NCBI GenBank assembly: GCA_029211085.1
Contig: JARGFW010000004.1
Location: forward strand, 971-64,970
Length of the DNA: 64,000 nt
Source of the DNA: Deferrisomatales bacterium
GTDB taxonomy: Bacteria; Desulfobacterota; Deferrisomatia; Deferrisomatales; JARGFW01
Direction of reading: 5' to 3'
Of this stretch, positions 6,836 through 64,000 are shown piece by piece. A model generated the notes under the pieces. That model was not told where the DNA came from, ran no database searches, and was given only the letters and a program-made list of their open reading frames with translations. How positions within the stretch are numbered: the stretch's first letter is position 1; every line of letters begins with the position of its first letter. Both the position numbers and the translations under genes were made by a program.

Positions 6836-6877
6836 AGTAATATCAAGGGCTTACGGGAACACCCGTAGGCCCTTTGT
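6787..6877 (+). repeat. Direct repeat DR1 (attL-like): 3' half of tRNA-Pro plus terminator hairpin
   Basis: 6787-6838 is identical (52/52) to 14694-14745. Similarity continues through the hairpin to 6877/14784. The 27-nt core 6809-6835 is identical to 23303-23329. Confidence 0.95.
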
Positions 6878-13195: not shown

Positions 13196-14488
13196 CTACC
13201 GTGCCTTGGCGAACTCCACCACGTTGTCGATCTTCGCCGCATCGCCCGCGACGATCCGGGCCAGGTACCGCCCCCAGGCGTCGAGGGCGCGGGTCTTTTC
13301 CGGCAGGTAGTCGAATAGGTCGTACACCTGCCGCGTCACGTGCTGCGGTGCGTGCCCCAGTAACATCGGCTTGATAAGCCCGCCCACCCCCGCGGCGCTC
13401 ATCATTGTGGCAGCGGTTCTGCGCAAGTCGTGAGGGGTGCAAGGCTGGATCTGGATGGGGTGCCGCTTCCTCTTGCCGTGTTTCTTTGGCGGGCCCAGAT
13501 CAGTTTCGCCGATATTGCGCCGCAGCCCCACTGAGAGCGCGTGTGTGGTCACGGGTGCTCCGCGGGGGCCGATAAACACCGGGCCGCTGTGCCCCTCCCG
13601 GTCGCCGATCAGGTCGAGGGCCAGGGTGGAGAGTGGGACCCCGTGGGTCTTGCCGTTCTTGCGCCGGGACGCCGGGATGATCCATATCACGCGCCCCTCG
13701 TGCACGGTCAACTCCTCATACTGCATCCCGGTCACCTCTCCGGGTCTTTGCGCGCAGACTAGAATCATGCGCAAGGCGTTCTTGACGGCACCGGATAGTT
13801 CGGTTGCGTCGAGTCCGGTCCAGAACTGCCGCACCTCCACATCGGTGAGCACGCGGTCTTTCGGTTTCTCCGCGGCCAAGGGTTCTATGCCGACCACCGG
13901 GTTAACGCGGACGATCCTCTTCCGCTTCGCCCACTTGAACATGGCACCGAGCACAGCCTTTAGCCGGTTGGCTGCCACGGGGGCGCCGCGGGCCTCCACA
14001 GCCTCAAGGAGTTCAATCAGCTCGTCTTGCGTAACATCGCCGGCCTTGAGTTCCCCTAGTACAGGAACCACGTCACTGGTCAGTTGCCGCCGGTACTCCT
14101 TCCACGTGCGCTCCCGCAGTTTCTTCTTCGCTTCCTCGTCAATGAACCGATCACATAGCGTGGCGACGGTTTCGGCGCCCCGCTGTGCCGCTCTCTGAGC
14201 GGCTGCCGTCGCCAGCTGCCGCCGTCTCACCTCTGCGGGGTCGATGCCATCACGCACCTGTGCGTGGGCCGCCTCATGGGCTTTGCGTGCCTCCCGCAAC
14301 GACACCGCCGGGTACTCGCCCAGAGTGAGCTGCTTTTTGGCGCCGTCGATGGAGTACGTATAGAGCCAGCTCCGCACGCCCGTGGGATAGATCATCAGGG
14401 CGAGCCCGCCGCCGTCTCGGAGTTGCCGGCGCCTGGCCCCAGGGGTTGCGGTGGTTCGCAGGTGGGAATCGGTCAGTTTCCGCTTCAT
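13196..14488 (-). CDS. int: tyrosine-type site-specific integrase, P4-like (DUF4102 N-terminal domain)
   Basis: N-terminus MKRKLTDSHLRTT...RQLRDGGGLALMIYPTGVRSWLYTYS. Catalytic region includes HDLRRTAATMM...LLGHAP...Y. GGAGG lies 5 nt before ATG 14488. The ORF extension to 14689 runs into AT-rich att DNA. Confidence 0.9.
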   Translation of the reverse strand: MKRKLTDSHLRTTATPGARRRQLRDGGGLALMIYPTGVRSWLYTYSIDGAKKQLTLGEYPAVSLREARKAHEAAHAQVRDGIDPAEVRRRQLATAAAQRAAQRGAETVATLCDRFIDEEAKKKLRERTWKEYRRQLTSDVVPVLGELKAGDVTQDELIELLEAVEARGAPVAANRLKAVLGAMFKWAKRKRIVRVNPVVGIEPLAAEKPKDRVLTDVEVRQFWTGLDATELSGAVKNALRMILVCAQRPGEVTGMQYEELTVHEGRVIWIIPASRRKNGKTHGVPLSTLALDLIGDREGHSGPVFIGPRGAPVTTHALSVGLRRNIGETDLGPPKKHGKRKRHPIQIQPCTPHDLRRTAATMMSAAGVGGLIKPMLLGHAPQHVTRQVYDLFDYLPEKTRALDAWGRYLARIVAGDAAKIDNVVEFAKAR

Positions 14489-14532
14489 CGGTGCCTCCGC
14501 AAACGGCGGCTTTTCCGTCAGGGGGTCACTTG

Positions 14533-14559
14533 AGCCGCCGTCTAAGCCGCCGTTTTGTG
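14533..14559 (+). repeat. Arm-type repeat copy 2
   Basis: AGCCGCCGTCTAAGCCGCC-g-TTTTGT, matching 6894-6920. Confidence 0.85.
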
Positions 14560-14693
14560 TCGGCTGGAGCTGAAATGGAAAGAAATGGTACGGGAGGAAG
14601 TATAGGCTGAAAATCCAGGAGTCGCAATAGGTTAGACAAGATGTATAGTCTTTTCTTGTCATTTCACAAAAGTGCAAGAAATACCCCAAAAAG

Positions 14694-23372: not shown

Positions 23373-23818
23373 CTTGTCCATGAGTCCCCGCGTGCGCCGC
23401 CGTCTCGGCAGGGTTGGCCGCGCAGAAATACGAACGGACTCCCGGGATTTCCGCCTGGCGTCGCTGTATGACCGTTGGGGTGGACCTGTGACGCCAGCTC
23501 CGCGGGCATCCGCGTGTCCATCGGTGCCCCGCGAGACCGGCCACCCACCCGCATGGCGGGCGGGCCAGCGCTCTAGGCAAATGTCGTTTGAAATCGTTGA
23601 CCGGGCGAGCGGGCGAGGAGTATGTTTCGAGCTCCACGGGGCGCCCCAGGCCGAACGAGGAACGGGCGGGTGGGGCCTTGGCCGCGCCCCCAAGCATTCC
23701 CGTGCTTCCGCCGCTGCCCAGGCCATTGGGGCATCCGGTTCCGGTGCGTTTCGCGGCGCCTCATAACCCTCAGGGTACCACCCGTCCGAGCGATACGCTC
23801 ACCACACAGGAGGACATC

Positions 23819-25021
23819 ATGAGAATCTCGAGGTTTCGCCAGGCTGTGATGGTCACCATCGCCTTGCTGCTGGTCTTCGCCCTGGGGGTTCCTGCCTGGG
23901 CGGCGAGGCCGATCCGGATCGGCTTCATGGCGCCTTTCGTGGGGGTGTACACACAACTCGGCGAGGATATGGACCGCGGATTCAAACTCTACCTCGACGA
24001 GATCGGCAACAAGGCGGGGGGGCGTGAGCTGCAGGTGTTCCTGGAGGACACGGAGGGCAAGCCGGAGTTGGGGCCCACGAAGGCCCGCAAGCTTCTCGAC
24101 AACGACAAGGTCGATCTTCTGTCGGGCATCGTGCACAGTGGGGTGGCGATCTCCATCAGGGATATAGTGGTGGAGAGGAAGGTCCCCCTGATCCTCACCA
24201 ACGCCGGTGCGCCGGCCCTCACGGGGAAACTCAAAAGCCCCTATATCTTTCGCGTCTCGTTCGCCAACGGTCAGCAAGACCTGGCCGGGGGATGGTACGC
24301 GTACCACAAACTCGGCTTTCGCAAGATGGTCGTGATCGCCCCGGACTACTCCGCCGGCCACGACAAGGCCAACGGCTTCATGAAGTACTTCAAGGAGGCC
24401 GGCGGCACGGTGGTGGAGGAGATCTATCCGCCGCTGAGTACCAACGATTTCGGGCCCTACCTCACCAAGATCGCCGACCAGGGGAAGGCGATCGATGGGG
24501 TGTGGTCGTTCTTCTCGGGGAGTGGTTCCATCCGGCTGGTGACCCAGTACGAGGAGTACGGCCTCAAGGACTCGGTGCCGTTCTTCGTTATCGGCGACAC
24601 CGTCGACGACGCCGTGCTGCCCTCCATGAAGGACGCGGCCGTTGGCGTCAAGAGCTACCACCATTACGCGGATACCCTGAAGAACCCGGAGAACGAGGCG
24701 TTCGTGAAGGCCTACGTGGCCAAGTACAAGACCAAGCCGGGCATCTTCTCCGAGCAGGGCTACGTGGGCGCGAAGGTGATCGCCATGGCCCTGGAGGCGG
24801 TGAAGGGGGACATCGAGAACACCGACGCCTTCCTGGCCGCCCTGCGGAAGGTGAAGTTCAACGCCCCCCGGGGGCCCTTCGCCTTCGACGAGAGCCAGAA
24901 CGTGATCCTGCCCGTCCACATCCGCCGGGTCGACAAGGTGGGGGGCACGTACCAGAACACGGTCCTGGATACCATCCCCGACGTGGATCAGGACTGGTCA
25001 CCGGCCAAGATGAAGAAGTAA
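23819..25021 (+). CDS. ABC transporter substrate-binding protein, LivK/branched-chain amino acid family
   Basis: AGGAGGA lies before ATG 23819. It has a signal peptide and a periplasmic binding protein type I fold (IRIGFMAPFVGVY...DKVDLLSGIVHSGVA). Confidence 0.9.
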   Translation: MRISRFRQAVMVTIALLLVFALGVPAWAARPIRIGFMAPFVGVYTQLGEDMDRGFKLYLDEIGNKAGGRELQVFLEDTEGKPELGPTKARKLLDNDKVDLLSGIVHSGVAISIRDIVVERKVPLILTNAGAPALTGKLKSPYIFRVSFANGQQDLAGGWYAYHKLGFRKMVVIAPDYSAGHDKANGFMKYFKEAGGTVVEEIYPPLSTNDFGPYLTKIADQGKAIDGVWSFFSGSGSIRLVTQYEEYGLKDSVPFFVIGDTVDDAVLPSMKDAAVGVKSYHHYADTLKNPENEAFVKAYVAKYKTKPGIFSEQGYVGAKVIAMALEAVKGDIENTDAFLAALRKVKFNAPRGPFAFDESQNVILPVHIRRVDKVGGTYQNTVLDTIPDVDQDWSPAKMKK

Positions 25022-25119: not shown

Positions 25120-26130
25120 ATGCATCTGCCTCGGTTCCAATATATTCGCTGCACGACCCGGGAAGAGGCCGCCAAACGGCTGGAGGAACTCGGCTCCGCG
25201 GCGTGTTTGATGTCCGGGGGTACAGATCTGCTGCCCCGCTTGAAGTACGGGCTGGGTCGGCCCGAGGTGCTGGTGAGCCTCGGCGGCGTGGAGGTGCCGC
25301 CGCCCCGGGTGGGTGGGAACGGGGAGCTTCGCATCGACGGGCTCACCCGCCTGGCCGCGGTGATCCGCTCCCCGGAGGTTCGGGCCCGGGCCCCGATCCT
25401 GTGCCAGGCGGCCCTGAGCGTCGCCTCGAACCAGGTCCGCCACATGGCGACCCTCGGAGGGAACCTGTGTGTGGAGGCGAGGTGCCTCTACTACAACCAG
25501 AGCCACGCCTACCAGTACGTGGAGCCCTGCCTCAAACGGGGCGGGACGGCATGCTATTTCGCGCCCAAGGGCGACCGCTGCTGGGCGATCTTCCCCTCCG
25601 ACACGGCGCCGGCGCTGCTGTGCCTGGGGGCGCTGGTCGATGTGGTGGGGCCGGAAGGAACTCGCGCCTTTCCGCTGGAAGACCTCTACGGCGGAGACCC
25701 CCTTTACCCCGTGACCTTGCGGCGGGGGGAGATCGTGGCCGAGATCCGGATCCCCGCGGCGCCGCCCAATCGAGGCCAGGCGTTTCGGAAACACAGCCGG
25801 CGCAAAGGGCTTGAATTCGCCGGCCTCACGGTCGCCGCCGTGCTGGAGCGGGAAGACGGGGGGCGGTGCCGGGAGGCCCGCATCGTGGTCGGCTCCGTGG
25901 CCGGGGCTCCGGTGCGCCCCTTGGAGACCGAGAACCGCCTGCGGGGCCAGGACCTGTCGCGCCCCGGGGTGCTTGCCGACGTCGCGCGGTCGGTGGCGGC
26001 CGAGATCCGTCCCGTGGCCCACCACGGCTACCCGGCGGGTTATCTGCGCCGGTGCGTAGAGGTGGAGACCCGCCGGGCGCTGGCCGAGGCGGTGGGTCTC
26101 GAACCCGGGACGGAAGGAGGATCCCCCTGA
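25120..26130 (+). CDS. FAD-binding subunit of a molybdenum-hydroxylase-family enzyme, with an HcrB-like Cys-rich insertion
   Basis: FAD_binding_5 motif (LMSGGTDLLPRLK). Insertion with C122-x14-C137-x7-C145-x8-C154, nt 25468-25581. Confidence 0.85.
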   Translation: MHLPRFQYIRCTTREEAAKRLEELGSAACLMSGGTDLLPRLKYGLGRPEVLVSLGGVEVPPPRVGGNGELRIDGLTRLAAVIRSPEVRARAPILCQAALSVASNQVRHMATLGGNLCVEARCLYYNQSHAYQYVEPCLKRGGTACYFAPKGDRCWAIFPSDTAPALLCLGALVDVVGPEGTRAFPLEDLYGGDPLYPVTLRRGEIVAEIRIPAAPPNRGQAFRKHSRRKGLEFAGLTVAAVLEREDGGRCREARIVVGSVAGAPVRPLETENRLRGQDLSRPGVLADVARSVAAEIRPVAHHGYPAGYLRRCVEVETRRALAEAVGLEPGTEGGSP

Positions 26131-26144
26131 GACGGAAAGAGATC

Positions 26145-26630
26145 GTGGGCTTGGTGGTGAACGGGGAACGGCACGAACTCGCGGTCGAGCCCCAGACCAC
26201 CCTGCTCGAGGCGCTGCGCACGCAACTGGGCCTCACCGGCACCAAGGAGAGCTGCGGCCAGGGGGAGTGTGGGGTGTGCACGGTGCTCCTCGACGGGGCG
26301 CCGGTCCTCGCCTGCCTCACCCTGGCGCTGGACTGTGAAGGGCGCCACGTGGTCACCATCGAGGGCCTGGCGCCGGACGGGACGATCACCCCCGTGCAGC
26401 AGGCGTTTCTCGACGCCGGCGCCATCCAGTGCGGCTTCTGCACCCCGGGAATGGTTCTCTCCACCACGGCCTTGCTCCGGGAAACCCCCCATCCCACCCC
26501 GGCAGAGATCGGCAAGGCCCTCGAGGGCAACCTCTGCCGGTGCACCGGTTACAACAAGATCGTGGATGCCGTCCAGCGGGCCGCTGCGGAGGACTGCCCG
26601 GGCGCGCAGGCGGGGAGCGACCATGGCTGA
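26145..26630 (+). CDS. (2Fe-2S)-binding small subunit of the molybdenum enzyme (start uncertain)
   Basis: Contains CGQGECGVCTV, plus QCGFCTPGM and CRCTGY motifs. Start candidates are GTG 26145, TTG 26151 and GTG 26154. Confidence 0.85.
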   Translation: MGLVVNGERHELAVEPQTTLLEALRTQLGLTGTKESCGQGECGVCTVLLDGAPVLACLTLALDCEGRHVVTIEGLAPDGTITPVQQAFLDAGAIQCGFCTPGMVLSTTALLRETPHPTPAEIGKALEGNLCRCTGYNKIVDAVQRAAAEDCPGAQAGSDHG

Positions 26631-28968
26631 CGGACTCCGTTACGTGGGAAGACCCGTTCCGCGGGTGGACGGCGTGGAGAAGGTGACGGGCAGGGCCCGG
26701 TACACGGTGGACATCGAGCTCCCCGGTACCCTGGTCGGGCGCATCCTCCGCAGTCCCCACCCCCACGCCCGCATCCTGAGCGTGGATACCTCCCGTGCCG
26801 CCAGGGTCCCCGGGGTCAAGGCGGTGGTGACCGCCCGGGACACCCTCGGGCTCCGGCACGGCTTCGTGGAGACGCCGCGCTACCCGGCGGATCAGGCCCC
26901 CCTGGCCGTGGACGCGGTGCGTCACGTGGGTGAGGAGATCGCCGCGGTGGCCGCGGTGGACCCCTACGCCGCCGAAGAGGCCCTGGGGCTCATCCGGGTC
27001 GAGTACGCTCCCCTCCCCGCGGTGTTCGACCCCGAGGAGGCGATGGGCCCCGATGCCCCGGAGATCCACCCGAGCCACCCCAAGGTCCTGGAACCCTACC
27101 GGAACATCGCCGGGAAGACCGCGACGAGCTGGGGCGACGTGGCGCGCGGGTTGGACGAGGCCTACTGCGTGCGCACGGATCGCTTCGAGAGTCACCTGCG
27201 CACCCACGGCTACCTGGAACCCCAGGCGACGCTGGCCAGCTGGGAGGGCGGCAAGCTCAACGTCTGGACCTCCAGCATGGGGCCGTTTCTCAAACGCGCC
27301 AAGCTCGCCCGCCTGCTCGGCCTGCCCCTGTCCTCGGTCCGTGTCCAGAAGGCCTACGTCGGCGGGGCCTTCGGGGGGAAGATCGACCTCTTCTCCCACG
27401 AGTTCTGCGCCGGCCTGCTCAGCATGAAGGCCGGCCGGCCGGTGCGCATGGTGGCGAGCCGCGAAGAGGTGTTCACGGCGTACCGGCATGGGCAACCCCT
27501 GGTGGTGGAGCTGACCACCGGGGTGAAGAAGGACGGCACCCTCCTGGCCCAGCGGCTCCGGGTCATCAACAACTGCGGGGCGTACCGGGGCAGCGGGGTG
27601 GTGGTGATCTTCCTGGCCTGGGGGTTCGCCGCCGTACCCTACCGCCTCCCGAGCCTCGAGTACGAAGGCTACGCCGTCTACACCAACAACCCGGTCCGGG
27701 CTCCCCAGCGGGGGCACGGCGCTCCCCAGATGCGGTTCGCCGTCGAATCCCAGCTGGACATGATCGCCGAGGAGATCGGGCTAGACCCGGTGGAGATCCG
27801 CCTGCGGAACGCCCGCCTGCCCGGGGAGGTGCTTCCCAACGGTGACAATGTCCACAACTGCGGCCTGATGGACTGCATCCGGCAGTCCGCGGAGCGGACC
27901 CGATTCCAGGAGCGGTACGGCAGGCCGCAGCAGAAGGCCGTTGGTTCCGGTCGATTCCGCCGGGGCATCGGCATCGGAGTGAGCGCCTACTTCGGGGGGT
28001 CGCTGATCTATCCCAACAGCTCGTCGGTGGTGGTGAAGCTCAACGACGACGGGTCCCTGACCCTGCTCACCGGGGCCATCGACATCGGCCAGGGGGCGGA
28101 GACGATCCTCACCCAGATCGTCGCCGAAGAACTCAACGTGCCCCTGGCGGAGATCCGGGTGGTCGCCGCGGACACCGAGAGCACTCCGGTGGACATCGGC
28201 GCCTGGATCAGCGGGGGGGCCTACGTGACCGGCAACGCCGCCCGGGAAGCCGCCGGAGCCGTGCGGCGCAAACTCACCGAGCTCGCATCGGAAGCCATGG
28301 AGGTCGGCGTCGAAGACCTGGTGGTGCAGGAAAAGGCGATCTCGGTGGCCGGCTCCCCCACCCGCCGCATGACCTACGCCGAGCTCTACGAGCGCAGCGT
28401 GCGGACCCGCCGGGGGGATCCGATCATCGGGGAAGGGCACTGGCGCACCATGCGAGACCAGCCGACCCACCCGAGCCTCGCATCCACCAAGGGCCGCTGG
28501 ACCGAGAACTACGCCTTCAGCGCCCAGGTCGCGGAAGTGGAGGTGGACATCGAGACCGGGGAGGCCCGCCTGCTCCGGGCGGTGACCGCCCACGACTGCG
28601 GCTTTCCCCTCAACCCCGTCCTGGTGGAGGGCCAGATCGACGGCCAGGTTTCCATGGCCCTCGGCCATGCCTTCCTGGAGGAAGTGCGGATGGAGGCGGG
28701 CAGGACGCTGAACCCCAGCTGGCTCGAGTACCGCATGCCCACGATCCACGATATGGCCGTGTCAGAGGCCATCGACGTGATCACCGAACGCTACGAGGTC
28801 GGGCGGCCGTACCGGACGAAGGAGGTGGGGGAGGGCTACGTGTCGGCCATTCTCGCCGCGATCGCCAACGCCATCTACGACGCCGTGGGGGTCCGCCTCC
28901 ACAGCACCCCCTTCACCCCGGAGCGGATTCTGAGGGAGCTGCGGGACCGGGACGGGGCGCAGCCGTAG
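26623..28968 (+). CDS. molybdopterin-binding large subunit (xanthine dehydrogenase / aldehyde oxidase / 4-hydroxybenzoyl-CoA reductase alpha family)
   Basis: 781 aa with VGRPVPRVDGVEKVTGRARYTVD, and GGFGGK-like GGAFGGK. ATG 26623 overlaps the upstream stop by 8 nt. Confidence 0.9.
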   Translation: MADGLRYVGRPVPRVDGVEKVTGRARYTVDIELPGTLVGRILRSPHPHARILSVDTSRAARVPGVKAVVTARDTLGLRHGFVETPRYPADQAPLAVDAVRHVGEEIAAVAAVDPYAAEEALGLIRVEYAPLPAVFDPEEAMGPDAPEIHPSHPKVLEPYRNIAGKTATSWGDVARGLDEAYCVRTDRFESHLRTHGYLEPQATLASWEGGKLNVWTSSMGPFLKRAKLARLLGLPLSSVRVQKAYVGGAFGGKIDLFSHEFCAGLLSMKAGRPVRMVASREEVFTAYRHGQPLVVELTTGVKKDGTLLAQRLRVINNCGAYRGSGVVVIFLAWGFAAVPYRLPSLEYEGYAVYTNNPVRAPQRGHGAPQMRFAVESQLDMIAEEIGLDPVEIRLRNARLPGEVLPNGDNVHNCGLMDCIRQSAERTRFQERYGRPQQKAVGSGRFRRGIGIGVSAYFGGSLIYPNSSSVVVKLNDDGSLTLLTGAIDIGQGAETILTQIVAEELNVPLAEIRVVAADTESTPVDIGAWISGGAYVTGNAAREAAGAVRRKLTELASEAMEVGVEDLVVQEKAISVAGSPTRRMTYAELYERSVRTRRGDPIIGEGHWRTMRDQPTHPSLASTKGRWTENYAFSAQVAEVEVDIETGEARLLRAVTAHDCGFPLNPVLVEGQIDGQVSMALGHAFLEEVRMEAGRTLNPSWLEYRMPTIHDMAVSEAIDVITERYEVGRPYRTKEVGEGYVSAILAAIANAIYDAVGVRLHSTPFTPERILRELRDRDGAQP

Positions 28969-29030
28969 CATAGGAACGGCCGGGAATACCCCTCCCAGGT
29001 GCGGGGGCCGGCCCTGCCGGAGAGCGCAGA

Positions 29031-30350
29031 ATGGAGAATGTACGGTACTGGCGGAGAGAGGTCGAGACCCTTCCCCGGGCCGAGTTGGAGGATCTCCAGC
29101 TCCGACGGTTCCGGGAACGGATGCAATATGTGTACGACCGGAGCCCCCTGTACCGGAGGAAGTTCGACGCCGCGGGGATTCGCCCCGACCACATCCGCAC
29201 CCTGGCCGACGTGCGCCGGATCCCCTTCACCGAGAAAGAGGAACTGCGGGAGAGCCAGGCCCGGAAGCCGCCGTGGGGAGATTTCCTGTGCATCCCCCCC
29301 GAGGAAGGCGTCCGGGTGTTCCAGACCACGGGGACCACCGGTATCCCGGTGCGGGCGCTCCTCAACAAGACCGATTGGACCGTGCACTTCTACGAGCAGT
29401 TCATGCACTTCATGCACGGCTACGGCATCACCCCCGCCGACGTCCTTTTCGTACCCTTCAGCTACGGCCTCTACATCGCCTGGTGGGGTTTCCAGGCCGC
29501 CCTGGAACAGGCCGGAGTGACGATCGTGCCGGGGGGCGGCCAGTCGACCGAGGACCGGGTCCGCAACCTCCTCGACTGGGGCGCGACCGCCGTGTGCGGA
29601 ACCCCCACCTACCTGCTGCGCCTGGGAGAGGTGGCGGGGAACCTCGGCCTCGACCTCCCGGGGTCTCCCGTGCGGGTCGTCGTGGCGGCCGGGGAGCCCG
29701 GGGCGAATGTGCCCGCGACCAAACGGGCTCTCCAGGAACTCTGGGGCGCGGAGGTGTTCGACGACATCGGCTCCACGGAGATCTCGAACTTCGGGTTCGA
29801 GTGTGTTGCCCACCAGGGCACCCACGTGATCGAGAGCATGTTTCTCGCCGAGTGCCTGGATCCGGAGACCCTGGAACCGGTAGCGCCGGGGCAGGTCGGC
29901 GAACTGGTCCTCTCGAACCTCTGCACCGAGAGCATGCCCCTGCTCCGCTACCGCATGAAAGACCTGGTCCGGTTCCAAACCGAACCCTGCGCTTGCGGGC
30001 GCACCTATCTTCGGCTGGAAGGGGGCGTGTTGGGCCGATCCGACGATATGTTCCAGTTCGCCGGGGTCAATATCTTCCCCTCGGCGGTGGAGAACCTGGT
30101 GCGGGAGGTGCCCGAGTTCGGGAGCGAGTACCAGCTGGTGGTCCCGAAGATGGGAAGCGGCCGGCGACTCACCGTCCGGGTCGAGCCGACGGGCCCTGAT
30201 CTCTCCGTGGAGGTTCTGGAACGGGCCGTGGAGCGCTTCCGGGAGACCTTCCGGTACCGGATCACGGTTACCCCCGAGGTCGAGGTGCGAGCGCTCGGGG
30301 AGTTGCCGAGGTTCGAGCACAAGGCCCGCCGCCTGGTGAGGGAGAACTGA
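29031..30350 (+). CDS. phenylacetate--CoA ligase family protein (PaaK-like)
   Basis: 439 aa with LYRRKFDAAGIRPDHIRTLADVRRIPFTEKEELRESQ and TTGTTGIPV motifs. Confidence 0.85.
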   Translation: MENVRYWRREVETLPRAELEDLQLRRFRERMQYVYDRSPLYRRKFDAAGIRPDHIRTLADVRRIPFTEKEELRESQARKPPWGDFLCIPPEEGVRVFQTTGTTGIPVRALLNKTDWTVHFYEQFMHFMHGYGITPADVLFVPFSYGLYIAWWGFQAALEQAGVTIVPGGGQSTEDRVRNLLDWGATAVCGTPTYLLRLGEVAGNLGLDLPGSPVRVVVAAGEPGANVPATKRALQELWGAEVFDDIGSTEISNFGFECVAHQGTHVIESMFLAECLDPETLEPVAPGQVGELVLSNLCTESMPLLRYRMKDLVRFQTEPCACGRTYLRLEGGVLGRSDDMFQFAGVNIFPSAVENLVREVPEFGSEYQLVVPKMGSGRRLTVRVEPTGPDLSVEVLERAVERFRETFRYRITVTPEVEVRALGELPRFEHKARRLVREN

Positions 30351-30396
30351 CCGCCCCCGGGCGCCCCTCCGCCCCGACGCCCTGGGGACGGTGCCC

Positions 30397-31248
30397 ATGA
30401 ACTTCTGGGCCATCCAGATCCTCAACGGCGTCTCCCTGGGGATGCTCCTCTTCCTGATCGCGTCGGGGCTGTCTCTCATTTTCGGCCTGATGCGGATCGC
30501 GAACCTGGCCCATGGGTCGTTCTACCTCCTCGGGGGGTATGTGGGTCTGAGCGTCATGAACCGCACCGACAGCTTCGCCCTGGCCGCGCTCGCGTCCTGC
30601 GTGGCCGTGCCGCTCCTGGGCGTGGCCGTCGAGCGGGTGTTTCTGCGCCGGCTGCCGAACCAGGAACTGCCCCAGGTGCTGATGACGTTCGGGTTCATCT
30701 TCATCCTGGCGGACCTGTGCTTGGTGCTGTGGGGCGGGACTCCCCAGAGCCTCTCCAAACCGGCGTTGTTTTCCCGTTCCCTGCGGGTCGCGGGGATGTT
30801 CTTCCCCAGCTACCGGCTCTTCGTCATCGGTGCCGGCGTCGCGATCGCCGTCGGGCTGTGGCTGTTCCTCGAGAAGACCCGCGTCGGAGCCATGGTGAGG
30901 GCAGGGGTGGACGACCCGGAGATGGCCCGTGCCGTCGGGGTGAATGTGCCCCTGGTGTTCACCGGGGTGTTCGGCCTCGGTGTGCTCCTCGCCGCCCTGG
31001 CCGGGGTCCTGGGAGGGCCGATGCTCGGGGTCTTTCCCGGCCTGGACATGGAGGTCCTGCTGCTGGCGCTCGTGGTCGTCGTGATCGGCGGCATGGGCAG
31101 CCTGAAGGGGGCGTTCCTGGGCAGCCTTCTCGTGGGGCTCCTCGACAACTTCGGGCGTGCGCTGTTCCCGGAGTTTGCGTTCTTCACCATCTTCGTGCCC
31201 ATGGCCCTGGTGCTGGCCCTGCGACCCCAGGGGCTGTTCGGACGATGA
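30397..31248 (+). CDS. branched-chain amino acid ABC transporter permease (LivH type)
   Basis: MNFWAIQILNGVSLGMLLFLIASGLSLIFGLMRIANLAHGSFY is a typical LivH sequence. Confidence 0.9.
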   Translation: MNFWAIQILNGVSLGMLLFLIASGLSLIFGLMRIANLAHGSFYLLGGYVGLSVMNRTDSFALAALASCVAVPLLGVAVERVFLRRLPNQELPQVLMTFGFIFILADLCLVLWGGTPQSLSKPALFSRSLRVAGMFFPSYRLFVIGAGVAIAVGLWLFLEKTRVGAMVRAGVDDPEMARAVGVNVPLVFTGVFGLGVLLAALAGVLGGPMLGVFPGLDMEVLLLALVVVVIGGMGSLKGAFLGSLLVGLLDNFGRALFPEFAFFTIFVPMALVLALRPQGLFGR

Positions 31249-52675: not shown

Positions 52676-53380
52676 TCATGGCCGTTCTCCGAAGAGCGCG
52701 GTACCCACCCGGACGATGGTCGCCCCCTCCTGCACCGCCACCGGGAAGTCGTGGGACATGCCCATGCTCAGTTCGGTCATCTCCAGCCCCGGCAGCGCGA
52801 GTGCGGCGAGCCGGTCGCGCAACTCCCGCAGAGCCCGGAAGTGGGGCCGCACCTGCTCCGGGTCGGTGAGGTACGGAGGGATGGTCATCAGGCCCCGTAG
52901 CCACAGATGGGGCCACTCGGCCATGCGCCGCGCCAGGGACTCGGCCCCCTCCGGGGTCGTTCCGCTCTTGCTCTCCTCGCCGGCCACGTTCACCTGCAGC
53001 AGCACCTGCAGGCGTCCCCGGCGCTCGGCCACCGCCTTCTCCAGGGCGCCGGCCAGGGACGGCCGGTCCAGGGTGTGGATGCAGTGGAACGCCTCGGCCG
53101 CGCGCTTGGCCTTGTTGGACTGAAGATGTCCGATCAGGTGCCAGCGCGCGTCCAAGGGCAGCTGGTCCACCTTGCCCAGGGCTTCCTGCACGTAGTTCTC
53201 GCCGAAGTCCCTGGCGCCCGCGGCATAGGCAGCGGCCAGGGACTCAACCGGCTGGCGCTTGCTCACCGCCAGCAGCAGCACCGAGTCCGGGGGGCGCCCC
53301 GCCGCGGCGACGGCGGCACTCAGTTGTCGCCCCACGGCCCTGTGGCGCCGGGCGACTTCTTCCGGCGTCTCAGCCACCAC
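52676..53380 (-). CDS. YggS-family pyridoxal-phosphate homeostasis protein
   Basis: Contains LLAVSKRQP, HLIGHLQSNK and LSMGMSHDF. Confidence 0.9.
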   Translation of the reverse strand: MVAETPEEVARRHRAVGRQLSAAVAAAGRPPDSVLLLAVSKRQPVESLAAAYAAGARDFGENYVQEALGKVDQLPLDARWHLIGHLQSNKAKRAAEAFHCIHTLDRPSLAGALEKAVAERRGRLQVLLQVNVAGEESKSGTTPEGAESLARRMAEWPHLWLRGLMTIPPYLTDPEQVRPHFRALRELRDRLAALALPGLEMTELSMGMSHDFPVAVQEGATIVRVGTALFGERP

Positions 53381-53981
53381 AGGCCTCTCGGGCCGGGGCG
53401 ATTCCCCACAGCGCCAGTCCAGCGGCCTCCAGGTGGTCGACCACCTCGGCCATGGGCAGGCCCACCACGTTGGTGTAGGAGCCGTTGATTGCCTCCACCA
53501 AGAACGCCCCCTGCCCCTGGATGGCGTAGCCGCCGGCCTTGTCGTAGGGTTCGTCCAGGGAGGCGTACCAGCGCACCTGCTCCAGACTCAGCGGACGGAA
53601 GCGCACGTCGGTGGTCACCGAGAAGACCTCGGCCACGTCCGGCCCCAGCAGTGCCACGGCGGTGATCACCTGGTGGCTGCGGCCGGCCAGGGCGCGCAGC
53701 ATCGACTCGGCGTCGGCCCGGGTGGCTGGTTTGCCGAGAACCCGGTCCCCCAGCACCACGGCGGTGTCGGCCGCCAGCACCCAGCACCCCTGGTGCACCC
53801 GGCCGGCGACTTCATCGGCCTTGATCCGGGCCACCGCCTCGATCGCCGCCGCCGGAGCCAGTCCCACGGGCAGGGTTTCCTCGGCGTGGCTCGGCACCAC
53901 CGTGAACGGCATGTGAAGAGCGCCCAGAAGTTCCCTCCGTCGCGGCGAGGCAGAGGCGAGGATGAAGCGGTGGGGGCTCAT
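53370..53981 (-). CDS. maf: Maf-family nucleoside triphosphate pyrophosphatase
   Basis: Starts MSPHRFILASASPRRRELL and contains DKAGGYAIQG. Confidence 0.9.
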   Translation of the reverse strand: MSPHRFILASASPRRRELLGALHMPFTVVPSHAEETLPVGLAPAAAIEAVARIKADEVAGRVHQGCWVLAADTAVVLGDRVLGKPATRADAESMLRALAGRSHQVITAVALLGPDVAEVFSVTTDVRFRPLSLEQVRWYASLDEPYDKAGGYAIQGQGAFLVEAINGSYTNVVGLPMAEVVDHLEAAGLALWGIAPAREACGG

Positions 53982-54205
53982 CGCGCGAAAGATTTCCTTC
54001 GTGAAACAAGGGGGTTAGCTGGTGTGTCGGTACCTCTGGTACGGTAGCCGATCCCTGCGCCGAGTGTCAAGGCGCAGCGCCGACGGGGAACCTGTCTCTC
54101 CGGTTTCGCCGGTGGGCTGACCGGTCTATACTAATAACCGTTTTTTGCTGTCATTTTGTCCCCCCTGTGGGGACGGGGAGCCGGGGGAGATTGAGGGGAG
54201 TTGTC

Positions 54206-55636
54206 ATGGCGGGACGGAAGGGATTGTGTGTAGGTGCGCTGGTGGCGGCCCTGGCCGGGTGGAACAACGGGGCGTCGGCGGCGGAGGCGGTGCTTCACTT
54301 GATCCATATCGCCGACGTGCGGGGTACGGTGGGCATGTGCGGTTGAGCACAGAATCCGCTTGGCGGTCTTGCCAAGAGGGCCTATTTCATCTCCGATCTG
54401 CGCCGCGACGGCATCGAGCCGGTGGTGGTGGACGGAGGAAATCTGTTTTTCAGCAAGAGTCAGCTCCACGCCTCCGAGCAGGAGCGTCTGCTGCGCAAGG
54501 CCCGGGTGCTGGTGGACGGCTACAACGCCATGGGCGTGGACGCGGTGGCCCTGGGCCCCCTCGACTTTGCTGCCGGGTTCACGGCCCTGGGCGAACTGCA
54601 GCGGCAGGCCCAGTTTCCTCTGCTGTGCGCCAACATCGTGCACCGCGATAGCGGGGTGCCGGTGTTTCAGCCCACCGCCGTGGTGCGCCGGGGGGTGCTT
54701 CGTGTGGGGCTGATCGGGGTGGTGGACTCCGCCCTTGGGGCGCGCGGGCTGGGCCCGGGGGGGGAAGACTACCGGGTGGAACCCCTGTTCAGCACCATCA
54801 GCCACTACGCGGACGAGCTGGCGGGGCAGTGTGACCTGGTGGTGGTGCTCTCCGCGGTGCCGATGAAGAAGTTCCGCCTGTTGGCCAAGAAGCTCCCGAC
54901 GGTGGATTTCTACGTGGCCGGGGATCCCCAGGACAAACTGCGCATCCCGTGGACCATAGGCGACGCGATGATCGCCAGCACGACCCAGTTGGGCCGGTAC
55001 CTCGGGTCCGCCCACATCGTGGTGGACGGAGGGGGCAAGTGGGTGACCCACCAGTTCGTGCCCATGAAACCGGAGTGCCGCGACGCCCCGGCGGTGAAGC
55101 GCCTGGTGGACGGGTACTACCGGGACGCCGCCGTGAGCCGCCTGCAAACCCCTGGTGGCCCGGCGCCGGACGACGAGGAACGGGTCAATCTAGTGTACGG
55201 CGGTGCCGTGTACGTGGGAGCCGCTGAGTGCGGACGTTGTCACGGCGACGCGTACCTCGCCTGGCAGAGACTGCCCCACGCCCGGGCCTGGCAAGACCTT
55301 CCCGAGGCGAACCGCAACCGCCTGGAGTGCCTGGAGTGTCACGTGACCGGACTGGGCCGGTGGGGGGGCTACGGGCACCCAGGGGCGGCCGAGGAAGGCC
55401 CCAACCTTGTCGGGGTGCAGTGCGAGGTGTGTCACGGTCCCGGCAGTCTGCATCCGGCGGTGGAGCTGGCGAGCGCCAGCCGGGCCCAGGTGGTCAAGCG
55501 CTGCCGCACCTGCCACACCCCGGCGCGCAGTCCCAAGTTCCGGTTGCAGGAGTACTTGTCACGCATCGCCTGCACCCAGGGGGAGCACGCCGCGGCGACT
55601 CTGCCGGCCGGCGCGGGGAGCGTCTCGAAGCAGTAG
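54206..55636 (+). CDS. candidate selenoprotein: secreted degenerate 5'-nucleotidase/metallophosphoesterase-like domain fused to a tetrahaem c-type cytochrome; TGA 54344-54346 read as Sec (U47)
   Basis: ATG 54206 plus a signal peptide are in the same frame as ORF 54422-55636, and the only interruption is TGA 54344. A SECIS-like hairpin lies immediately downstream. The motif is C45-G46-U47. There are four CxxCH motifs (CGRCH, CLECH, CEVCH, CRTCH). 5'-NT-like blocks are VVVDGGNLFF, YNAMGVDAVALGPLDF and FPLLCANIV. Confidence 0.65.
54355..54380 (+). promoter_or_regulatory. SECIS-like stem-loop downstream of in-frame UGA
   Basis: The element reads UCC-g-CUUGGC-GGUCUU-GCCAAG-a-GGG. The 6-bp upper stem is perfect and the lower 3 bp include a G.U pair. 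Counting the U of UGA as 1, the loop GGUCU occupies positions 22-26, the same as GGUCU in the E. coli fdhF SECIS. Confidence 0.6.
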
Positions 55637-57411: not shown

Positions 57412-59616
57412 CTAGTTGTCCGCCATGCCGACCACGTCCCGAAGGATGCCCAGCACCTGCTCCTCTTCCGCGGTCAATCCCAGGTTCGGGGGGGCGATCT
57501 CCCGGGCGGCGGCGTATACCTCCCGACGCTCTTCCCGTGACGGCAGCAGGTCCGCCAGGCCGGCCAGCGCCCACGGCCAGTCCGCTTCCAGCAGGCGCGC
57601 CTGTTCCCGGATCAGTCGCTGGAAGGCGGCCGGGGTGAGGCCTCGCAGGCGCGGGCTGGAGCGCACGATCTCCTGGGCCTTCTCGAACTGCCGCTTGTCG
57701 AGGCTGCGGTCGGCGACGGCCACCGCGAGCAGGGTGCGCACCAGCGCCTCGGCGAAGCCCCCGACGGAGAACTCCCAACGGCTCGGTTTCCGGGCTGGCG
57801 GGAGTTGTGGGGCACCCTCTTCCACCGTGTCTGCCGTGCCCAGAAACTGCTTCAGCCATGGGTTGCCGTACACGCACTGGAAGAGCAACTCCTGGGAGCG
57901 GTCACGGGCGTCCCGCCAGAGATTCCAGCCGGCCTGGACCGATTCCGAGAACACGGCTTCCAGTGCCAGATAGGGGTTGTCCGGCCGCACCGGCCGGCGC
58001 TGGGAGCGCACCCAGGGAGCCGCCCATTTCACGGGGGCGAGCAGGGGGTTGCGATCCGACAGGGCGTAGCGCTGCACCCGCAGGGGATGGAGCAAGCGTA
58101 GGGTCTCCGCCGTGGCCCCGTTCACGGCCAGGCGCACCCAGGGGCGCACCAGGGTGTGATAGGCCTGGTCGTTGAATCGCGATACCTGTGCCACCCGGGC
58201 GAACGCCTCTTCGTCCTCGAACCCGTCGTCGTTCTTGAGGAGGTCACCCATGTCCCGTTCTTCGAAACCCACCTGGTAGTCGTCCAGCCAGGGCTGACTC
58301 GGGTCCCCCTCGATCACCATCTCGTAGAGGCCCGGGGAGAGGTAGTCGAGCATCTCCAGACAGCCGATGATCTCCTTGTGCTCCTTCTTGGCCACGCTGC
58401 CGGAGACGAAGATGCCCAGGTGGCCGACGTCCTCGTGGACCATGTAGACGATGACCTGCCCGTGGCGCCTGATCTCCGCCACCGAGCCGTACACCTTCTT
58501 GATCCAGTTCAGGGCCTGGGGCGGGGGGGTTATGTTGTCTCCGTTGGAGGCGAACACCAAGATCGGGTCCTTGATGTTCTTGAGGTTGATCGGCTCCCCC
58601 GGGGCGAGTTCCAGTACCCCCTGCTCCAGGCTGTTGCCGATGAACAGGTTCTCGACGATGAAGTGAATCTCTGCGGCGTTCATCTTGTAGAACCCGCCCC
58701 ACCACTTCTCGAAGGTGAGGAAGCGCTCTGCCTCCGTGTCCACCTTGGTGTACAGGTGGTAGAGCTTGGTCCAGTGGGTGTTGGCGGGGTTGAGATCTTC
58801 GAACCCCGCCACCAGATTGGCGCCGTCGAAGGTGCCGTTGCCGAGATCGCACCACAGGGTGGTGAGCCAGGTGCCGCCGCACAGCCCGCCGCGGTAGCGC
58901 ATGGGGTTGGCGCCCTCGACCCCGCCCCAGTAGGACAGGGGCGAGCCGTTGAGCACCATGGGGCCGGTCACGTCCGGGCGGTCCGCTCCGATCAGCGCCG
59001 TGGCCCAACCGGCCTGGCAGTTGCCGATCACCGCCGGCCGGGGCGCATCGGGGTGGCGCCGGGCAACCTCTTCCAGGAAGCAGATCTCCGCCCGGTGGAC
59101 GTCGGCCAGGGTCTGGCCGGGTTCGGGCTCGGGGAAGAACATCACGAAGTAGACCGGGAAGTTGAAGTCCAGGGCCACGCCGATCTGCGAGTTGAACTTG
59201 GAGCCGCCGATGCCGGGCCCGTGCCCGGCCCGCGGGTCGATGATCACCAGCGGCCGCTGCCGGGGGTGCGGCTGGCTGCGGGCGTGCAGGCACTCGGCGC
59301 TGCGGTGCGGTTCCTGGTCATCCCGTGGCTGCTGCCGCCGGTCGTCTGCCGTGTCCCGGCGATCCAGGATGCGCAACAACGCGTAGTTCGCCGGCCGCTC
59401 GAAGGTGCGGGCATCCATCACCTCTTCGTACTCGAACACCAGCGCCGGCGGTTGGCCGGCCTCCAGGTGCTCCAGATAGCCGTTGCCCCGCTGGCGCAGC
59501 ACATCCCAGAACAGGACACTGCGCTGCCATTGATCGACCCAGTACTCTGCTGCATCCGCGATCCAGGGTGCTACCGGCAGAGCCGTAGCCGGACCGCCTG
59601 CGATTCTGATGGTCAT
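57412..59616 (-). CDS. DUF3141 domain-containing alpha/beta-hydrolase-like protein (PHA-locus associated); ORF extends to 59631
   Basis: Contains WQRSVLFWDVLRQRGNGYLEH, VIIDPRAGHGPGIGG, IGNCQAGW and FEKWWGGFY, all typical of DUF3141. Confidence 0.8.
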   Translation of the reverse strand: MTIRIAGGPATALPVAPWIADAAEYWVDQWQRSVLFWDVLRQRGNGYLEHLEAGQPPALVFEYEEVMDARTFERPANYALLRILDRRDTADDRRQQPRDDQEPHRSAECLHARSQPHPRQRPLVIIDPRAGHGPGIGGSKFNSQIGVALDFNFPVYFVMFFPEPEPGQTLADVHRAEICFLEEVARRHPDAPRPAVIGNCQAGWATALIGADRPDVTGPMVLNGSPLSYWGGVEGANPMRYRGGLCGGTWLTTLWCDLGNGTFDGANLVAGFEDLNPANTHWTKLYHLYTKVDTEAERFLTFEKWWGGFYKMNAAEIHFIVENLFIGNSLEQGVLELAPGEPINLKNIKDPILVFASNGDNITPPPQALNWIKKVYGSVAEIRRHGQVIVYMVHEDVGHLGIFVSGSVAKKEHKEIIGCLEMLDYLSPGLYEMVIEGDPSQPWLDDYQVGFEERDMGDLLKNDDGFEDEEAFARVAQVSRFNDQAYHTLVRPWVRLAVNGATAETLRLLHPLRVQRYALSDRNPLLAPVKWAAPWVRSQRRPVRPDNPYLALEAVFSESVQAGWNLWRDARDRSQELLFQCVYGNPWLKQFLGTADTVEEGAPQLPPARKPSRWEFSVGGFAEALVRTLLAVAVADRSLDKRQFEKAQEIVRSSPRLRGLTPAAFQRLIREQARLLEADWPWALAGLADLLPSREERREVYAAAREIAPPNLGLTAEEEQVLGILRDVVGMADN

Positions 59617-59864
59617 CCTTTCCCTCTCCATCGCCGGTTCCTTCGGCGGTAGTTGCCACAGTTTGGATGCATTCTAGGGGATTCGCAGCCCCATGTCTGC
59701 ATGGAGCTGCCGGCCCCCTGACCGAGGACAGCGTCTTCCGAGGGTGAACTCCTACTCCCCGCCCCGCCACCCCAGGATCACCGTCCGGGGGCGGGCCCGT
59801 TCCAGAAGAGCGGGTCGCCCCGGGGCCTGTTCTGTTCCCAGACGATAGGTCGTTGGTGTCAAAC

Positions 59865-62078: not shown

Positions 62079-62546
62079 ATGGATACGAAACTATGGGATG
62101 CGTGGTTGGAATTTTCGTCCAACGCGATGAAGGGGGCTGAACAATCCCGCAAGGCGTTCGAGAGCATGGCCTCCGCCCCCTTCGGGCCGGCGGAGCTCAC
62201 CAAGTGGATGCACCAGTGGTATCCCAAGGGGGCCGCCAGCCCCAACGACCTGGCCGAGGTCGTCGAAACCTGGTGGAACACCCTGGGGGGGGTCCCCCGG
62301 CACCGCTACGAAGAGGCTCTCAAACAGAACGAGGAGCTGTGGAAACGGCTGCAGGAAGCCGAGGCCACGATTTCCAAACTGCGGGACCTCATGGTGCGGG
62401 ACGCTGCCGAGAAGACCTGCGAACAGGCCGAAGTCATGCTGGACGAATGGGAGAAGACCACCCGAAGCGTGATGGAGGGCCAGGCCGAGATCGCCCGGAA
62501 ATGGTCGGAGGGTCTTTTCGGGGTCAAGACGGACAAAGACAAATAG
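62079..62546 (+). CDS. hypothetical protein in the PHA locus (coiled-coil C-terminus)
   Basis: 155 aa. GAGAGGAG lies 8 nt before ATG 62079. Confidence 0.6.
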   Translation: MDTKLWDAWLEFSSNAMKGAEQSRKAFESMASAPFGPAELTKWMHQWYPKGAASPNDLAEVVETWWNTLGGVPRHRYEEALKQNEELWKRLQEAEATISKLRDLMVRDAAEKTCEQAEVMLDEWEKTTRSVMEGQAEIARKWSEGLFGVKTDKDK

Positions 62547-62602
62547 GCGTCGCAAAGCCCTCTTCACCCGCTGAGAATACGCACTCCGCAAGGGAGACGT
62601 CG

Positions 62603-64000
62603 ATGAACTGGACAGATCAGATGCAGCAGCTCATGCGCTCGTGGACCGAGGCGCAGCAGAAGATGGCGTCAGAGTGGACCACCGCCATCCACCAGGCCGG
62701 CGCGCCGGGCCAGGCGACGGCGGGGGATTGGGCCACCCAGTGGCGCGAACAGGCCGCTAGGAACTTTGAAACCTATCTGGGCACCGTGGGTGGGGTTCCC
62801 GGCTCGGTCGCCCAACGGATGTTCGCGGGCGCGCAGACCTACAACCAGTTCGTCGATTTCATCTCCGCGGCCCTGCGGGACATGGCGCCCAAGATGGAGT
62901 CGGGGGCAGATTGGGTCGCCGCTCTCAAGCAACACATGGACGCGCTGCAGGAAAAAATGAATGGCCAGCCTCACCTGTGGATGAAGCCGGAGTCGATGGC
63001 CGCCATGGGCGGGGACGCGTCCGAACTCTGGCGGCTCTTCCTCAGCCAGACCCAGGCCATGGCGGCCCCGTGGCTGGCCTCCCTCGGGCAATCGCGGGGC
63101 CATTTGGGCGAGGCCATGGGGGGCGACCACCGGGCCGTCATCCGCATGGCGAATCTGTTCACCGACACCTTCGAGTCCACCATGGGGAAGTTCCTGGGGG
63201 CCCCCGCCATCGGCTATTCCCGGGAGCATCAGGAGAAGCTGACCAAGACCTTCGAGGCCTGGGTCGACATGAAAAGGGCCGAGGTGGCGTTCAACACCGA
63301 ACTGACGGCCATCGGTTTTCGTGCCATGGGAGCCCTGGTCGACAGGCTCAAGGCCATGGCGAGCAAGGGAGAGAAGATCGAAAGCTCCCGCAAGCTCTTC
63401 GACCTGTGGGTGGAGGTCGCGGAAAAGACCTACTTCGAGGCGGCTTCCACCGAAGCCTTCGCCCAGACCCAGGCGGACCTCGTCAACGCCTCCATGCACC
63501 ACAAGGTCCATGAGAAGGTTCTGCTGGAGATCTTCTACAAGGCGGTTCACCTCCCCACCCGCCAAGAGATCGACGACGCCTACAAGCACATGCACGAACT
63601 GCGCAGCCAGGTGAAGAAGCTGACGAAGACGGCGGCTGCGTTGCAGGCGGAAGTGGCGTCGCTGACCGAGTCCCGGCACACCGCCCTGGCCGCCTCCCAG
63701 GCGACGGCGAAGGCCTTGTCCAGGTTGCAGTCGGAGGTAACGTCGCTGACCGAGTTCCGGAAGGCCACGCTGGCCGCTTCCCGGGCGACGGAGAAGGCCT
63801 CGGCCCGGTTGCAGTCGGAGGTGGCGTCGCTGGCCGAGTTCCGGAAGGCCACGCTGGCCGCCTCCCGGGCGAAGGGGAAGGCGTCGAATAGCCCCGCAGA
63901 CCCCGCGCATGCAGGGCCTGCGAGAAAGAAGACCGCCGCTGCGCCCAGGACGATTGTTCCGGACAAGGTGACCGCCGAACCGACCGGGAAGACCCCTGCG
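62603..64000 (+). CDS. phaE: class III PHA synthase subunit PhaE-like protein (3' end outside the window)
   Basis: This ORF is not in the supplied track because it has no stop in the window. AGGGAG lies 6 nt before ATG 62603. It contains a PhaE-type block LGAPAIGYSREHQEKLTKTFEAWVD, and the frame stays open to the window end. Confidence 0.7.
   Translation, partial: MNWTDQMQQLMRSWTEAQQKMASEWTTAIHQAGAPGQATAGDWATQWREQAARNFETYLGTVGGVPGSVAQRMFAGAQTYNQFVDFISAALRDMAPKMESGADWVAALKQHMDALQEKMNGQPHLWMKPESMAAMGGDASELWRLFLSQTQAMAAPWLASLGQSRGHLGEAMGGDHRAVIRMANLFTDTFESTMGKFLGAPAIGYSREHQEKLTKTFEAWVDMKRAEVAFNTELTAIGFRAMGALVDRLKAMASKGEKIESSRKLFDLWVEVAEKTYFEAASTEAFAQTQADLVNASMHHKVHEKVLLEIFYKAVHLPTRQEIDDAYKHMHELRSQVKKLTKTAAALQAEVASLTESRHTALAASQATAKALSRLQSEVTSLTEFRKATLAASRATEKASARLQSEVASLAEFRKATLAASRAKGKASNSPADPAHAGPARKKTAAAPRTIVPDKVTAEPTGKTPA
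63641..63892 (+). repeat. 3 x 84-nt in-frame tandem repeat inside phaE (28-aa units LQ[AS]EV[AT]SL[TA]E[SF]R...)
   Basis: Units start at 63641, 63725 and 63809 with an exact 84-nt period. Units 2 and 3 are nearly identical. Confidence 0.9.

Follow-up and report, generated by a model that had tools for sequence, protein, structure and literature searches.

In a 64,000-nucleotide (nt) stretch of a Deferrisomatales bacterium metagenome-assembled genome (MAG; assembly GCA_029211085.1, contig JARGFW010000004.1, forward-strand positions 971 to 64,970; hereafter the window, in whose own numbering positions are given), we are highly confident that positions 54206-55636 are one gene for a periplasmic selenoprotein of family NF041198, and that its in-frame UGA at 54344 is read as selenocysteine (Sec) via a hairpin like that of Escherichia coli fdhF; the product would most likely be a haem-wired Cys/Sec redox enzyme.

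The 477-codon frame (stop codon counted) contains one internal stop only, TGA 54344-54346, and the mechanical list of open reading frames (ORFs) starts the gene at GTG 54422. An earlier note on this DNA, made from its letters, had proposed translation from ATG 54206 with a signal peptide and through that single TGA, in place of the listed start at 54422, with Sec in C45-G46-U47 (codons TGC-GGT-TGA), a CUUGGC/GGUCUU/GCCAAG hairpin 3′ of the TGA, G23 and U24 at the positions that SelB contacts in fdhF, and four C-terminal CxxCH sites. Each of these features was confirmed, and the proposal that they belong to a selenoprotein with an fdhF-like Sec insertion sequence (SECIS) is strongly supported by the pairing of TGA with Cys codons among homologues and by a hairpin specific to Sec forms. 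The candidate signal peptide reads as a basic n-region, a hydrophobic core and an ASA/AEA cleavage motif, and peptides equivalent to MAGRKGLCVGALVAALAGWNNGASAAEA follow the upstream ATG in all orthologues.

Reading-frame conservation across the TGA codon

The read-through protein retrieved 52 relatives, the top one of which (P0001, GenBank MDF1551723.1, "multiheme c-type cytochrome [Deferrisomatales bacterium]") is 402 amino acids long and 100% identical over 84% of the query. This NCBI gene model is short by 74 residues and has no signal peptide. The next 18 relatives (about 44–81% identity) are N-terminally truncated too, with close homologues of 292–410 amino acids covering 61–86% of the query. 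Attachment of c-type haem requires export. The 402-residue model is not credible because it lacks both the signal peptide needed for that attachment and the first beta-alpha unit of the fold, and we conclude that it is wrong.

DNA of eight close relatives gave nine orthologous loci, two of them near-identical, at 43–81% identity. In all nine, TGA occupies the identical codon, the frame extends upstream through that single TGA, and an ATG with a signal peptide lies 42–47 codons before it. The peptide around the TGA follows the pattern SDVRGT[VL]G[ILM]CG-U-[AV]xxPLGG[LF]AKK, and the codons on either side of it vary freely at synonymous positions (CGG/CGC, GGT/GGG/GGC/GGA, ACG/ACC, CCG/CCA). Synonymous variation combined with peptide conservation on both flanks indicates that both are translated. 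The earlier note had also raised the possibility that homologues start near residue 73 with a signal peptide of their own; they do not, and carry the N-terminal block with TGA or a Cys codon at position 47. Distant full-length relatives from Myxococcota and other groups (P0020, P0021, P0031 and others) have PCGC in this place, with the second Cys aligned to the TGA.

The same pairing recurs in the wider family. A scan of GTDB species representatives yielded 324 relatives. The 80 loci kept, taken together with the nine orthologues and the gene in the window, come from Deferrisomatales, Myxococcota, Acidobacteriota, Planctomycetota, Latescibacterota, Verrucomicrobiota, Nitrospinota, Eisenbacteria and others. 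Within a conserved PCG[U/C] motif, the codon at the Sec position is TGA at 28 sites and TGC or TGT at 50. On the sequences compared, this alternation at one position is the classical Sec/Cys signature, and Sec decoding of TGA 54344 is very likely.

If the TGA were a real stop, the gene would start at GTG 54422 or 54428 (402–404 amino acids) and the upstream 46 codons would be a separate small ORF or non-coding; default gene callers do give the short model in every homologue, and in several pipelines the part 5′ of the TGA is annotated on its own, as an ORF of 42–45 amino acids. Yet the short product would have no signal peptide for its four invariant CxxCH sites, which need periplasmic maturation, and would be missing strand beta1 and the ensuing loop and helix of the 5′-nucleotidase fold. 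Protein conservation is continuous across the TGA in the nine orthologues, Cys-form homologues are single continuous proteins, and the in-frame stop is TGA at all 28 sites, never TAA or TAG. We therefore consider a real stop very unlikely.

No further TGA with signs of read-through emerged from a scan of the window, a weak one whose thresholds missed TGA 54344 as well. Its sole match was the pheS stop, TGA 3510, in frame with the following pheT ORF, which we rejected as a Sec candidate: it is an ordinary gene junction.

The hairpin 3′ of the TGA as a candidate SECIS

The hairpin consists of a stem formed by CUUGGC (54359-54364) and GCCAAG (54371-54376), a GGUCUU loop (54365-54370) and lower pairs 54356-57/54378-79, with a folding energy of -13.0 kcal/mol for 54355-54382, the two lower pairs included. 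Between the UGA and the apical loop lie 18 nt (54347-54364). Counting the U of UGA as position 1, GGUCU occupies nt 22-26 and G23/U24 fall at 54366/54367. An alternative G22-U27 pairing gives a stem of 7 base pairs (bp) and a 4-nt loop instead of a 6-bp Watson-Crick stem with a 6-nt loop. Published criteria for bacterial SECIS elements ask for a loop of 3–9 nt and an upper stem of 4–16 bp, a G among the first two loop positions, a UGA-to-loop spacing of 16–37 nt and a minimum free energy of at most -7.5 kcal/mol (PMC13188914), and the window hairpin agrees with all four.

The E. coli fdhF element used for comparison, UGACACGGCCCAUCGGUUGCAGGUCUGCACC, was verified by BLAST (100% identity under the name fdhF in 5,413 records). 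Both hairpins lie just 3′ of the UGA inside the coding sequence (CDS), and in both GGUCU stands at nt 22-26, so that G23/U24 coincide. They differ in stem sequence and in register: the fdhF loop comprises nt 21-26, whereas that of the window comprises nt 22-27, shifted by one.

Conservation among relatives gives this resemblance its weight. The 18-nt segment CTTGGCGGTCTNGCCAAG is unchanged in the nine orthologues save for the last loop base, even though it uses codons that are rare in the same genes (CTT, 2–10% of Leu codons; GGT, 2–17% of Gly codons), which argues for selection at the RNA level. This also answers the second doubt raised by the earlier note, that the hairpin might not be conserved where the TGA is. 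Of the 28 Sec forms, 16 had GGTCT at nt 22-26, against none of the 50 Cys forms (Fisher p = 1.8e-9), and nt 23-24 were enclosed by a stem of 6 bp or longer in 16 of the 28 and 4 of the 50, respectively (p = 3.8e-6), p-values that ignore shared ancestry and are inflated, the loci not being phylogenetically independent. The spacing from the UGA to the GG codons is fixed in all Sec forms, but indels interrupt it in roughly one Cys form in four. Among Sec subgroups the stem variants are compensatory (CUUGGC/GCCAAG, CUGGGC/GUCCAG, CGGGGC/GUCCCG and CUGGGC/GCCCAG).

One Sec subgroup from Blastocatellia and Eisenbacteria (L025, L036, L045, L047, L055, L033 and L043) does not have the fdhF-like GGUCU loop and carries a 6–9-bp hairpin with a GGC or GGA triloop about 31 nt past the UGA (near nt 31-34). 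Together with the GGUCU type, this implies at least two SECIS classes in the family. L043, from a Candidatus Eisenbacteria MAG (JAWKQE010000024.1), holds two tandem family paralogues, at 4892 and 6067; in each of them an in-frame TGA lies in a PCGU motif and is followed by a hairpin whose GGA/GGC loop stands at about nt 31.

Taken alone, the hairpin is not beyond chance. Perfect 6-bp hairpins with loops beginning G[G/U] occur 45 times in the window, about 3.5e-4 per nt, and at Rfam gathering thresholds the window matched a tRNA and no SECIS family. A generic criterion (a stem of 5 bp or more, a G among the first two loop nucleotides, 16–37 nt spacing) was passed by 25 of the 30 Sec sites and by 34 of the 51 Cys sites; we dropped it as not discriminating in these GC-rich genes and used the position-specific tests above instead. 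Given that the hairpin by itself is unremarkable, its significance comes from the comparison with other genomes, and it is on this comparison that the case rests.

Besides the inflated p-values, several results count against the proposed decoding. The folding z-score against shuffled sequences is only -0.4 to -1.7, that of a thermodynamically unexceptional hairpin, and U17, bulged in fdhF, is paired in the window. Covariation comes only from distant paralogous subgroups in which the 3′ arm is shifted by 1 nt, the orthologue stem being invariant; owing to this shift, RNAalifold found no meaningful consensus stem in 17 pooled Sec-form sequences, and pairs were counted by script given the change of register between subgroups. 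Neither selA, selB, selD nor tRNA-Sec was found in the 64-kilobase (kb) window (30 largest ORFs against Pfam; ARAGORN; Rfam), where ARAGORN reported only tRNA-Pro and tRNA-Ser, and a tRNA-Sec search across all fetched loci also found none; the Sec decoding machinery of the host is assumed. The literature searched gave no selenium labelling or peptide evidence for any family member, nor anything pertinent on selenocysteine in Deferrisoma.

Two further explanations bear on the same evidence. The lack of visible Sec machinery in the window would suit a UGA read through without Sec, by near-cognate insertion of Trp or Cys or under a reassigned code. Against this, TGA is the commonest ordinary stop in the window, ending 33 of the 49 heuristically called ORFs with a stop; the residue aligned to it in homologues is Cys, the classic partner of Sec; the downstream element fits the SelB-binding loop of fdhF in sequence and spacing; and NCBI curates the family as a selenoprotein family. 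We hold such read-through to be extremely improbable. To a pseudogene or an assembly or sequencing error, that is, a nonsense change of an ancestral TGC/TGT Cys codon, we give almost no credence: TGA is one base away from TGC and TGT and errors do occur in MAG assemblies, yet the same TGA appears in independent assemblies (JGI, NCBI, ENA, Logan) and several phyla, the frame is otherwise undisturbed, and a hairpin specific to Sec forms is conserved 3′ of the TGA. Returning to Sec as the preferred decoding, we infer by analogy with fdhF that its insertion at UGA 54344 would be SelB-dependent.

Family membership, fold and proposed function

The earlier note had not recognized the architecture as that of a described selenoprotein family and had called the protein unannotatable by default. 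Both statements have to be withdrawn. NCBI has a curated model, NF041198.1 "UshA_like_PCGU" (an equivalog of 519 positions), which this MAG record missed and under which the read-through protein, with residue 47 set to Cys, scores 297.9 bits (E = 1.3e-88; cut-off 275). The window protein is a member of NF041198, "UshA-like (seleno)protein, PCGU", an already described selenoprotein family. It appears in a 2026 review of selenoproteomes of prokaryotes as "UshA-like protein, NF041198, CxU", with Zhang and Gladyshev, 2008, given as its source (PMC13188914). Under "COG0737, UshA-like, CxU", these authors had counted 76 selenoproteins across 20 ocean samples, along with 92 Cys homologues (PMC2398784).

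The window protein shares with this family the CxU motif (C45-G46-U47) near the mature N-terminus on an UshA-like N-domain, a UGA aligned to Cys elsewhere (Sec/Cys dimorphism), and a C-terminal region bearing CxxCH sites. It differs in that the Deferrisomatales-type orthologues are a short form, without the helical insert of about 80–100 residues seen in P0021 and P0031. Its match falls into two stretches, the best covering residues 16-277 and profile positions 9-271 of 519, whereas the model aligns P0021 over positions 18-518 of 519. In addition, the residue preceding the Cys is Met in the window and Ile, Leu or Met in orthologues, not Pro. Our literature search found no experimental work on the function of NF041198.

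Two other selenoprotein families were compared. MccSep/ExtKL (GSU2937-2936; NF040886; PDB 9wt8) is a multihaem cytochrome c selenoprotein acting as a polysulfide reductase (Sci Adv 2026; PMC13510729). Like the window protein, it is a periplasmic multihaem c cytochrome with one Sec, its in-frame UGA splits the annotated gene, and it occurs in Desulfobacterota-type anaerobes, which makes it a precedent for haem-coupled Sec/Cys chemistry. In contrast, it has five haems, lacks an UshA-like domain and carries its Sec C-terminally (...PDGUPTPNR), whereas in the window protein the haems number four and Sec is N-terminal. Membership was ruled out (no NF040886 match at E <= 0.01; PDB 9wt8 profile E = 0.22, with one CxxCH only), and the two families are, judged from these comparisons, not homologous. 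NF049981, "UshA-like (seleno)protein family 2", is likewise an UshA-like selenoprotein family with weak N-domain similarity, and membership in it was ruled out too (34.8 bits against a cut-off of 140), its motif being CxxU and that of the window CxU.

In the window protein the Pfam match is confined to the C-terminal cytochrome module (PF13435). A profile of the family matches, over the N-domain, SoxB (4uwq/2wdc, E about 1e-26) and 5′-nucleotidases (2z1a, E about 1e-25, others weaker) and, over the C-domain, cytochrome c554 and other multihaem proteins. The four CxxCH sites are invariant, together with H358 and H416, among 44 aligned sequences. An AlphaFold model of the Cys-form homologue P0020 (about 26–29% identical to the window protein; predicted local distance difference test 80.9, predicted template modelling score 0.80) has 5′-nucleotidases and SoxB as its best structural matches (Foldseek E 1e-16 to 6e-20); in it, the CGC motif lies on the loop that joins strand beta1 to helix alpha1.

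The N-domain is homologous in fold and sequence to those of SoxB, UshA and CD73. The dimetal metallophosphoesterase motifs DxH, GD and GNH[E/D], however, are not present: DxH has become D-V-R (A-D-V-R), GD has become G-N and GNHE has become GPLD, and in pairwise alignment with UshA, SGGD stands against DGGN and GNHEF against GPLDF. The C-terminal substrate-binding domain of the nucleotidases is likewise replaced, by the tetrahaem module. A working dimetal phosphoesterase of the UshA, CD73 or SoxB kind was ruled out, the metal and catalytic motifs having been replaced, and we infer that the protein is not a nucleotidase. The alignments indicate that the 5′-nucleotidase/SoxB fold has been kept and that the phosphoesterase metal ligands and chemistry have been lost.

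We propose that translation would start at ATG 54206 and that the mRNA hairpin, with its apical GGUCU, would recruit SelB-GTP-Sec-tRNA(Sec) as the fdhF SECIS does, upon which UGA 54344 would be decoded as Sec. The product would be exported via its cleavable signal peptide and receive its haems in the periplasm. The Cys45-Gly-Sec47 dyad would sit on the loop after strand beta1, at the usual place of motif I, in the former metal pocket. A C45-U47 selenenylsulfide is plausible by analogy with known motifs of this kind; the four haems would exchange electrons with it or with its selenol, and the dyad would act on a substrate in the periplasm, for which a sulfur, selenium or disulfide compound is the most plausible candidate. 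A haem-wired thiol/selenol oxidoreductase for such substrates is thus what analogy suggests as the most likely function.

In some relatives, electrons may come from the quinol pool via an adjacent cytochrome b/c protein. A protein of about 610 amino acids with multihaem c and a cytochrome b561/Ni_hydr_CYTB membrane domain, which we take to be CbcL-like, adjoins the family gene in seven loci (L010 7570-9402 on the minus strand, L003, L006, L011, L085, L088 and L089). L010 is a second, paralogous Sec form in a Deferrisomatales MAG. A thioredoxin-domain protein follows the family gene in seven Planctomycetota/Verrucomicrobiota loci, and both kinds of neighbour are weak hints at the context of redox wiring.

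Three points count against this functional picture: it is built on analogy only, the structure was predicted for the Cys-form P0020 and not for the window protein, and the neighbours in the window itself (maf and a methyltransferase) hint at no function. A competing view, in which the protein is a true selenoprotein whose Sec47 and Cys45 are ligands of a haem iron (compare Cys in TsdA, SoxAX and MccSep) or of a metal replacing the dimetal centre, is a serious alternative, though in our view the less likely one. CxC and CxU motifs are known as redox-active disulfide or selenenylsulfide motifs, which leans against it. In its favour, only two non-motif His (H358 and H416) are invariant for four haems, so that some haems may need another distal ligand; the dyad lies where metallophosphoesterases bind metal; and MccSep has a Cys-ligated haem with the catalytic Sec nearby (PMC13510729).

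The redox-enzyme reading can be extended to the family. NF041198 might represent, beside MccSep, another kind of multihaem selenoenzyme with a mechanism of its own, namely a periplasmic respiratory or detoxifying oxidoreductase in which a SoxB/UshA phosphoesterase pocket was rebuilt around Cys-Gly-Sec and wired by four haems that supply or take up its electrons, with sulfur, polysulfide, selenium or disulfide substrates and CbcL-like quinol coupling in some lineages; we put this forward tentatively, as possible and on balance doubtful.

Gene neighbourhood and implications

Table 1. Coordinates in the window of the candidate selenoprotein gene, its parts and its divergent neighbour.
Feature	Position	Strand	Details and basis
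Full CDS, UshA-like (seleno)protein	54206..55636	+	476 codons including Sec47, then TAG 55634-55636; translation
Shine-Dalgarno-like GAGGGGA	54193..54199	+	6 nt 5′ of ATG 54206; read from sequence
Predicted Sec-type signal peptide MAGRKGLCVGALVAALAGWNNGASAAEA	54206..54289	+	residues 1-28; read from sequence
C45-G46-U47 codons TGC GGT TGA	54338..54346	+	TGA 54344-54346 is the proposed Sec codon
Bacterial SECIS-like hairpin	54356..54379	+	folding, conservation in Sec forms, fdhF-like position
Short gene model, GTG start	54422..55636	+	ORF list; equals the 402-residue GenBank MDF1551723.1
5′-nucleotidase/SoxB-fold (UshA-like) domain, degenerate dimetal site	54290..55135	+	residues ~29-310; profile, alignment, model
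C-terminal tetrahaem c554-like module	55211..55546	+	Pfam PF13435, E = 1.7e-13
CxxCH sites	55229-55243, 55328-55342, 55421-55435, 55502-55516	+	residues 342, 375, 406, 433
maf, divergently transcribed neighbour	53370..53981	-	Pfam Maf, E = 1.3e-57

The conserved neighbours of the family gene vary by clade (maf; the CbcL-like cytochrome; DUF4159 with the thioredoxin-domain protein) and yielded no function. A divergent maf gene, of the nucleotide pyrophosphatase family, stands beside the family gene in 13 loci, the window included, from Deferrisomatales-type genomes and Acidobacteriota (Blastocatellia); L036 (5091-5684, minus strand), L013, L025, L026 and L047 are among them, and the family proteins are only about 25% identical across these groups. 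The linkage may reflect shared regulation, joint transfer or coincidence.

Elsewhere in the window, tRNA-Pro (6760-6836) is accompanied within about 8 kb by a DUF3631 protein (9534-11021, minus strand) and a tyrosine integrase that has an Arm DNA-binding domain (13196-14689, minus strand), which suggests that a mobile element has integrated at this tRNA gene. A cluster at 25120-31248 contains a xanthine-dehydrogenase-family molybdoenzyme with its FAD-binding subunit (25120-26130) and large molybdenum-cofactor subunit (26269-28968), beside an AMP-binding CoA-ligase-like protein (29031-30350), a periplasmic binding protein (23588-25021) and a branched-chain-type permease (30391-31248), and may be a module for the degradation of aromatic or heterocyclic acids. 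Just downstream of the selenoprotein gene, a 739-residue DUF3141 protein (57412-59631, minus strand) and a gene like PhaE of class III polyhydroxyalkanoate synthase (62204-64000, plus strand), which runs off the window end, point to polyhydroxyalkanoate metabolism.

The window protein is a new member of its family, mis-annotated in the source record, and does not found a new selenoprotein family. NF041198 has been catalogued as selenoproteins since 2008 and has a wide distribution that takes in Desulfobacterota-like lineages, Myxococcota, Acidobacteriota, Planctomycetota and others. In the public models of MDF1551723.1 and its close homologues, the presumed catalytic Cys-Gly-Sec site is missing along with the signal peptide and the first elements of the structure, and metabolic reconstructions or structure predictions built on them will therefore be wrong. 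What remains of value is the correction of this annotation and the question of what a haem-plus-selenocysteine architecture does. In 2026 MccSep was established as a multihaem selenoenzyme of sulfur respiration, which makes a second, unrelated architecture combining haem and Sec a reasonable target for biochemistry.

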